From the IMG/VR virus record IMGVR_UViG_3300027766_000001: a stretch of 64,000 nt of DNA, one strand, 5' to 3'. The position numbers and the translations under genes were made by a program. The notes beneath the pieces are model-generated. The model did no database searches. It was not told the DNA's origin and was given only the letters and a program-made list of their open reading frames with translations. The number at the start of each line of letters is the position of its first letter. The first letter of the stretch is position 1. The stretch is from a virus. Its lineage: Duplodnaviria; Caudoviricetes. Of the stretch, positions 49,965 to 50,154 are shown piece by piece.

Positions 49965-50108
49965 ATGAGTAAGAGCAGACAGGAATCATTAAAAGAGATG
50001 TCCGATATTGCCTTCCGCTTAGGCTGTATCGTGGTTGATCTGCAAGTAAAGAAAGCCCAGATGAAAGCCCGCGGTGATACGTCACCGAAAGGCAAAACCA
50101 AATCCTGA
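49965..50108 (+). CDS. Small basic protein (47 aa, MSKSRQESLKEM...), not in the ORF track
   Basis: AGGAG RBS, open frame to TGA. Confidence 0.6.
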   Translation: MSKSRQESLKEMSDIAFRLGCIVVDLQVKKAQMKARGDTSPKGKTKS

Positions 50109-50154
50109 CTTACGAGTCACCGTGCTTACGAGCACACCCCGCTCTTACGAGAGC
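50106..50154 (+). repeat. Three tandem 4-bp hairpins with the identical loop TTACGA
   Basis: TGAC-TTACGA-GTCA, GTGC-TTACGA-GCAC, GCTC-TTACGA-GAGC. Confidence 0.85.

Follow-up and report, generated by a model that had tools for sequence, protein, structure and literature searches.

Hairpins of the C(UUCG)G type are said to have been found in abundance between the genes of phage T4 by Tuerk et al. in 1988. Loops of the UNCG class nucleate folding, C-G being the thermodynamically best closing pair for this loop class, and 5′ stem-loops stabilise E. coli mRNAs. In phage lambda, boxB is a single hairpin with a GNRA-like pentaloop, which is bound in the early leader by the arginine-rich N. The promoters of phage N4, with a 3-nt loop and a 5–7 bp stem, are found in several copies before the early operons, and early genes of the phiKZ type are transcribed by a packaged (virion) RNA polymerase. 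In domain d of enterovirus oriL, a YNMG tetraloop is read by protein 3C, and the loop drifts widely within YNMG (PMC5633025). In the operator of T4 gene 32, a 5′ structure is followed by an unstructured repeat tract leading to the ribosome-binding site (PMC3014915). With respect to nucleus-forming jumbo phages, ChmC, the one characterised RNA binder of this group, shows no sequence motif (10.1101/2023.09.22.559000).

The locus presented here is an array of UACG hairpins ahead of a gene for a 333-aa protein in the window, i.e. the whole 64-kb stretch of DNA that was analysed. Its source is a phiKZ-like jumbo phage, represented by a contig of about 280 kb, with split multisubunit RNA polymerase beta subunits, tail sheath, terminase and the phiKZ internal head protein. 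The array belongs among the structured cis-acting mRNA leader elements and is a real, previously undescribed RNA signal that probably controls the mRNA of the 333-aa gene; in the literature searched, no prior description of a UACG array was found. The features of the locus, and the leaders of homologous genes in other phages, are collected in table 1.

Table 1. Features at the hairpin array of the window, in 5′ to 3′ order, followed by leaders of homologous genes.
Feature	Position	Strand	Description
Intrinsic terminator	49766..49807	+	GGGAG...CUCCC then T11; ends the upstream operon
39-aa micro-protein	49828..49947	+	arginine/lysine-rich, pI 12, motif KAMRTPNP, conserved
47-aa micro-protein	49965..50108	+	basic, pI 10, phrog_11017, motif IVVDMQVRKAQ; carries H0, overlaps H1
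H0	50072..50087	+	CGGUGA-UACG-UCACCG; 3′ end of the 47-aa ORF, codons G-D-T-S-P; from hairpin scan and MFE
H1	50106..50119	+	UGACU-UACG-AGUCA; −2.9 kcal/mol
H2	50122..50135	+	GUGCU-UACG-AGCAC; −4.4 kcal/mol
H3	50141..50154	+	GCUCU-UACG-AGAGC; −4.6 kcal/mol
Unstructured leader	50155..50198	+	G-poor, ACU/ACC-rich, begins ACCACUACUACC; predicted unpaired
Shine-Dalgarno AGGA	50188-50191	+	inside the leader 50155..50198
333-aa gene	50199..51200	+	N-terminal all-beta domain of about 85 aa, disordered linker, C-terminal alpha/beta domain
N domain of the 333-aa protein	50199-50459		seven beta strands in the model (31-sequence alignment), pLDDT 94
201phi2-1 leader			GUAGC-AUUCC-GCUAC then AUACUACUAGAAGG
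Viktualia leader			201phi2-1 stem with a different loop, then four ACU repeats
Phabio leader			CCAC/GUGG then ACUACUACUAGAAGG
Goslar leader			GAGG/CCUC then AAUACUACUACUACUAGGA
AB3P2, Proteus phage 10, L181 and L182 leaders			ACU repeats

The sequence at 50106–50154 reads, in order, TGAC-TTACGA-GTCA, CC, GTGC-TTACGA-GCAC, ACCCC and GCTC-TTACGA-GAGC, exactly as given in the first-pass annotation, in which the stems TGAC/GTCA, GTGC/GCAC and GCTC/GAGC had been drawn around C-TTACGA-G. The gap to the 333-aa gene, put there at about 45 nt, is 44 nt from the end of H3 to the ATG at 50199, with H1–H3 standing in a row 44 to 93 nt ahead of the start codon. The motif CTTACGAG occurs three times in the window, each time at the array locus. 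The proposal of a TTACGA hexaloop on a 4-bp stem was right in the shared loop but not in its size: the outer T and A pair, so that each unit consists of five base pairs capped by a UACG tetraloop. In the SA002/pEa_SNUABM_37 lineage, the T..A around TACG in the middle hairpin is replaced by A..T (GCGGA-TACG-TCCGC), with two further compensatory swaps in the same stem. In the relative L161, the A of one unit has become G, yielding U.G, and across the sequences compared the flanking pair of H2 is U-A in five and A-U in eight, plus one U.G. A fourth hairpin (H0), overlooked in the earlier reading, occupies the last codons of the 47-aa ORF, whose TGA stop codon provides the first three bases of H1.

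By using a perfect stem of at least five pairs and a four-base loop as the scan criterion, five TACG hairpins were found in the window, four of them inside 83 nt at the array. Folding of the RNA from 50060 to 50205 gave exactly these four UACG hairpins in both the MFE and the centroid structures (z = −4.2). The longest tandem run of hairpins sharing a four-base loop was one in 272 and two in 28 of 300 shuffles of the window, as compared with the four observed; as no shuffle produced a run of three or more, the array is not due to chance.

The first-pass annotation had named absence of the motif from relatives among the findings that would refute it; the motif is, however, present in relatives. 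Orthologues of the 333-aa protein were obtained through protein searches (named phages, IMG/VR, JGI metagenomes and large protein collections), after which their upstream DNA was retrieved. The UACG element was found in 17 related phage leaders, each upstream of the orthologous gene: those of the window, L123/L155, L161, pEa_SNUABM_37, SA002, L159, L160, L162–L164 and L175–L179, and of the Agricanvirus members RAY (gp198) and AH06. The proteins of L123/L155 and L161 are 78% and 64% identical to the 333-aa protein, and the nearest named relatives, Erwinia pEa_SNUABM_37/48 and Salmonella SA002, are distant (32–36% identity over the 333-aa protein). The number of leader copies varies from one (L175) to three, plus H0 where the 47-aa ORF precedes the array.

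Variation of the stems with retention of the loop, at first noticed among the units of the window phage, holds there and extends across the 17 relatives. In a 14-leader alignment, standard pairing is present in 94% of cells and compensatory (both-side) change in six of 20 stem pairs (24 cells); none of 500 shuffles reached the observed covariation score or percent paired, and in a control in which the 3′ partners were slid by one to three columns pairing was 28–48% with zero to one compensatory pairs. Covariation was also computed on a 10-sequence version of the alignment. In the relatives, H1 has either a GAC/GUC or a GUC/GAC stem, a compensatory replacement of A-U by U-A. The stem of H2 is found as GCGGA-UACG-UCCGC or GUGGA-UACG-UCCAC, with three of its five pairs altered on both sides and 98.5% of cells paired, and that of H3 as GCCC/GGGC, GUCC/GGAC or GUGC/GCAC, with 100% of cells paired. 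With respect to L123 and L161, the 42 hairpin bases show zero and one changes, respectively, the single change giving U.G; in the same comparisons the adjacent gene agrees at only 60% of its third codon positions, and the spacers and the downstream leader, unlike the hairpin bases, pick up substitutions and indels. On these comparisons the hairpin bases are under purifying selection.

H0 is retained in 10 of the 11 relatives that possess the 47-aa ORF upstream. In all 11, Thr and Ser of the H0 codons are encoded by ACG and TCA, respectively, which account for 28% of Thr and 17% of Ser codons in the long genes of the window; fixation of these codons despite their low usage indicates that synonymous sites are constrained, as would fit an RNA structure within the coding sequence. 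That the + strand is the one that folds is suggested by the orientation of the genes, which lie on it, by UACG being a stable RNA tetraloop class, and by the wobbles, for which U.G on the + strand was found in four cases, to be compared with two A.C mismatches.

The gene found 3′ of the array is always a homologue of the 333-aa protein, whereas the upstream neighbour varies, being a T-run with a purine-rich tract in L160, a 140-aa ORF in L178 and gp197 in RAY. Thus, the element is part of the downstream gene's leader, and the hairpins stay with this gene in these three genomes despite the different upstream neighbour. The hairpins are located 24–45 nt ahead of the ATG, and the Shine-Dalgarno sequence is never within them. 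In L160, which derives from a 273-kb genome, the purine-rich tract upstream of the hairpins extends for approximately 130 nt (2210–2345) and contains repeated GGGGGGTAGGATGA and GAAGGAAGGGGGG. In the window, the terminator at 49766–49807 closes the prior operon, so that the unit probably consists of the 39-aa gene, the 47-aa gene, the array and the 333-aa gene; the remaining long T-runs of the window likewise come after GC-rich hairpins.

The overlap of H1 with the stop codon of the 47-aa ORF, and the location of H0 in its last codons, could indicate that the hairpins punctuate a polycistron, either as a processing or 3′-protection site between the micro-protein and 333-aa messages or as the target of an endoribonuclease that shuts off expression. 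However, L160, L178 and RAY keep the hairpins where the upstream gene is different or absent, there is no following U-tract, and one gene per genome is affected, which makes such a role improbable. The 47-aa protein itself is conserved in at least eight relatives; its homologue in RAY is gp199, which follows gp198 and neighbours tRNA-Asn instead of preceding the hairpins, and no member of the family was detected in the hairpin-bearing L160 genome. For the 39-aa family, the RAY, Goslar and L160 genomes all gave a negative result. Readthrough of the 47-aa stop codon into the 333-aa gene was considered and discarded, as the frame is open in pEa_SNUABM_37 and closed by TAG in the window, and is thus not conserved.

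The distribution of the motif within genomes restricts the kind of signal that may be envisaged. No other TACG array is present in the complete pEa_SNUABM_37 (294 kb) and SA002 (288 kb) genomes or in the window; the remaining TACG hairpins are few and isolated, some of them being C(UACG)G terminator-type stems. A search of the window and both of these complete genomes for tandem hairpins sharing any loop of three to seven bases yielded only chance pairs besides the array. Of the four copies of CTTACGAG in a third complete genome (G001, 273 kb, the source of L160), two lie at the array locus, which is the only place where the motif clusters. Occurrence at one locus per genome argues against a class of promoters, a tag for the packaging or export of every mRNA and a dispersed repeat, and renders unlikely the suggestions, made on first inspection, of a hairpin promoter or a general nuclear-export signal. 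The many copies that characterise the dispersed-repeat class (REP/BIME, PeSL) were accordingly not found. A pattern scan of IMG/VR for two CTTACGAG 4–30 nt apart was also tried and abandoned: almost all of its more than 120 matches were unrelated, many of them being lysine/arginine-rich coding repeats on the opposite strand.

No covariance model of Rfam matched the region 49000–51000 on either strand up to E = 10, and a sigma-70 promoter scan of the element gave no match. As for intrinsic termination, H3 is followed by ACCACUACUACC with no U-tract and the terminator scan had no match at the element, the genuine terminators of the window having T7–T11 runs. The window terminator at 46269 uses a UUCG loop with canonical C-G closure. 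In pEa_SNUABM_37, the terminators at 190745 and 192829 carry C(UACG)G on 7-bp stems, unlike the A/U-closed leader hairpins. A long-range interaction between the loops and CUCGUAA, codons 18–20 of the 333-aa gene, is limited to the window, the relatives having GCG/GCA/UCG CGU AAA, and was rejected; clusters of UCGUAA or GUAGUAGU that might pair in trans were not found elsewhere in the window.

The same distribution bears on the possibility that the signal acts at the DNA level, with single-stranded hairpins or cruciforms serving as an N4-like promoter for a virion RNA polymerase or as a site of replication or recombination. Both DNA strands, when single, fold into three hairpins (z of approximately −4.6), the window phage encodes a phiKZ-type multisubunit RNA polymerase, and the Goslar homologue is described as early (10.64898/2026.10.01.755736). 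Early promoters, however, must be many, and here a single locus is found per approximately 280-kb genome. Every copy has the same orientation, with UACG on the coding strand; U.G wobbles and U-A to U.G changes fit RNA; and both the stem and the loop size, of four nucleotides instead of three, differ from those of the N4 promoters, the polymerase here being multisubunit. A DNA-level role is, thus, very improbable.

Further information comes from the loops. Among the 51 hairpins of the 17 leaders, the loop is UACG in 50 and CACG in one, so that all conform to the UNCG/YNMG class of tetraloops (U/C-N-A/C-G loop), and the flanking bases pair as in this class. The N position of UNCG is A in all 51, with U, C and G absent. 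Closure is by U-A in 32, by A-U in 18 and by U.G in one hairpin, the pair beneath being C-G or G-C; C-G closure, and with it the extra-stable C(UNCG)G form, is not found in any of the 51.

By taking these features together, the element is tentatively read, with a likelihood falling a little short of even, as a multivalent cis-acting 5′-leader RNA for the 333-aa gene, the UACG loops of which would be read by a specific factor. The earlier proposal of a multivalent site for a loop-binding protein is in this respect still the best reading, although its other half, the binder, was not found: no binding partner for the UACG loops was identified. We infer from the sequence both the existence of the RNA and the 5′ end of the mRNA. 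Each unit of the + transcript folds alone into a 5-bp stem with a UACG (UNCG/YNMG-class) cap and an A/U closing pair atop G/C; this fold, with its conservation, its covariation and its tie to the downstream gene, is established by the data. On the reading proposed, the array would dock a factor that reads the loop together with the weak A/U closing pair, and occupancy would set the stability or the translation of the mRNA of the 333-aa gene. A loop-specific reader is favoured because the stems turn over and the loop does not, because the free UNCG position is always A, because the closing pair shuns the stabilising C-G, and because the single hairpins are weak (−2.9 to −4.6 kcal/mol), which would also make them poor as a pure nuclease block. 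As the enterovirus oriL loops drift within YNMG, the constraint here looks tighter than one on shape alone. The sample of leaders is small, and, the 17 being related, the invariance of the loop reflects fewer independent events than instances.

The main alternative dispenses with a reader: the fast-folding caps would stabilise the 5′ part of the mRNA against 5′-end-dependent decay, and would keep upstream coding RNA from base-pairing with the unstructured, ACU-rich tract on which ribosomes load. The folding properties of UNCG-class loops and the effect of 5′ stem-loops on E. coli mRNAs, both mentioned above, count in its favour. Leader copies vary between one and three (plus the upstream-ORF copy), as expected of an additive structural role, and the ribosome-binding site is never overlapped by the hairpins. 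On the other hand, the weakness of each hairpin, the consistent avoidance of a stabilising C-G closing pair and the retention of A at the variable loop position in all 51 hairpins while the stems turn over count against such a role; where only loop shape matters, as in enterovirus oriL, many YNMG sequences are seen (PMC5633025). A leader of this type is a serious possibility, even if we consider it distinctly short of probable.

An argument for it, and at the same time against a loop reader, comes from the other members of the gene family. Homologues outside the enterobacterial clades have no UACG hairpins, yet they have a hairpin, an (ACU)n tract and a ribosome-binding site, and the sequence of the hairpin differs in the Pseudomonas phages and in Goslar (table 1). 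A different, non-UACG hairpin at the same place in the Goslar, 201phi2-1, Phabio and Viktualia homologues implies that the family-wide need may be just for a hairpin. On the sequences compared, the general leader of the gene family consists of a hairpin, an ACU-rich unstructured tract and a Shine-Dalgarno sequence, and the UACG array is the version of it adopted in Salmonella, Erwinia and related uncultured phages. The (ACU)n or ACUACUAG tract abuts the Shine-Dalgarno sequence in the window (50155–50198), L165, L166, L168–L172, L124, L181 and L182. It is found in chimalliviruses of Erwinia, Escherichia and Pseudomonas, in Obolenskvirus, in Proteus phage 10 and in uncultured contigs, and could act as a translational enhancer or as a tract for single-strand binding. 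The exact ACTACTAC occurs three times in the window, the two other copies being inside long ORFs.

A loop-specific reader might be sought among the small basic peptides whose genes lie upstream and among other RNA-binding proteins of phage or host; the product of the gene itself is a less likely candidate. The N domain of the 333-aa protein (phrog_10337/10807) is found, fused or free-standing, in chimalliviruses (Goslar, 201phi2-1, Phabio, Viktualia, Agricanvirus) and also in phiCbK-like Caulobacter phages, Obolenskvirus, YerA41 and others. Pfam holds no family for the 333-aa, 47-aa or 39-aa proteins. Comparison of the N-domain model with the PDB gave nothing significant (best VIA Z, 4.6; best Foldseek E-value, 0.4, for SspB and ribosomal L19). 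With the full-length protein as query, Foldseek against the PDB reached an E-value of 0.06 at best, and VIA a Z of 6.4, confined to a helical stretch. All four of these values fall below a meaningful level. Scores from the protein atlas did not exceed 0.83. Structure searches of the models recognised no RNA- or nucleic-acid-binding fold in the 333-aa product. The protein is acidic (pI 5.4; N domain, 4.5), which, together with a confident N-domain model that matches no RNA-binding fold, speaks against reading of the loops by this product, as in an autogenous translational operator of the T4 gp32, gp43 or ribosomal-protein type, although leader and gene are co-inherited. The peptides in turn are not detectable in every hairpin-bearing genome.

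Other observations concern the surroundings of the N-domain genes. YerA41_079, an N-domain homologue, is annotated as 'structural protein'. In L183, the Acb2/Tad1 hairpin family (PF24729) is found in the gene that follows that of the N domain, which hints at anti-defence functions nearby. N-domain genes often adjoin tRNA genes or tRNA-like RNA islands (L181, 190–300; L173, 766–1085; L180, 2666–2743), with the end of the tRNA approximately 30 nt ahead of the ATG in L181 and with tRNAs directly downstream of the N-domain gene in YerA41 and RAY.

The time at which the gene is expressed may be estimated by analogy. Goslar gp144 is among the few early genes, with those for ChmA and ChmC, that rise on Rhc depletion (10.64898/2026.10.01.755736). 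The tblastn match in Goslar is locus tag Goslar_00144, which is assumed to be gp144, and the mRNA of the 333-aa gene is by this comparison probably early. A further, if unlikely, reading is that the UACG array serves as an address tag by which a dedicated phage factor, e.g. the arginine-rich 39-aa or the 47-aa micro-protein in a peptide–hairpin pair like that of lambda N and boxB, would single out one early mRNA for special handling. The mRNA would, for example, be protected, translated at a set time or directed from the early vesicle or nucleus to the ribosomes or back. If true, it would be the first sequence-specific RNA–protein code described in Chimalliviridae.

Whichever mechanism applies, the array is small and under strong constraint, its loop being invariant and its stems variable, and it precedes a conserved gene, reported as early in Goslar, in the cultivable phages RAY, SA002 and pEa_SNUABM_37. 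Loop swaps that leave the stem intact would offer a mutable handle on gene-specific post-transcriptional control in nucleus-forming phages. The array defines a candidate RNA family absent from Rfam; it and the (ACU)n tract suggest that a widespread, uncharacterised phage gene family shares one type of leader.

By comparing the array with the systems introduced at the outset, a pattern of partial likeness emerges. With the T4 C(UUCG)G hairpins it has in common the short stem, the U-N-C-G loop and the location in phage intercistronic RNA, but the loop is near-always UACG, closure is by A/U (or U.G), the 5-bp stems are weak, and the units stand in one row instead of being scattered. The likeness to enterovirus oriL lies in the UACG/YNMG loop, the short stem and the viral 5′ region, the oriL loop being a protein recognition site; oriL, however, is a single hairpin in a cloverleaf of an animal RNA virus, and the array has one to three leader copies with a near-invariant loop.

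With lambda N-boxB, the array shares a small hairpin with a conserved loop and a variable stem in an early leader, along with the presence of basic micro-proteins (pI 12 and 10) nearby, which makes the 39- and 47-aa products attractive candidate readers by analogy. The differences are that these peptides were undetected in some hairpin-bearing genomes and that the array has UACG loops in several copies. The 8-mer CGCUCUUA in H3 equals lambda boxA, and a boxA was considered on this ground; CGCTCTTA (50140–50147), however, lies inside the 5′ arm of the H3 stem and the relatives have CGCCCTTA, CGTCCTTA or CGTGCTTA, so that, not being conserved where the stem covaried, it is probably a coincidence. 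The single-stranded boxA and the GNRA-like loop of a lambda nut site are not present, the loop being UACG.

As in T4 gene 32, a structured 5′ element is followed by unstructured repeats, here (ACU)n, that run into the Shine-Dalgarno sequence; the array differs in having no pseudoknot and in preceding a gene with an acidic product that shows no recognisable nucleic-acid-binding fold. From the PeSL cassettes it is set apart by its occurrence once per genome, with neither a U-tract nor a sigma-70 match. Overall, the UACG array makes use of a textbook loop class, but in the form of a tandem array of invariant loops on variable stems at a single gene.
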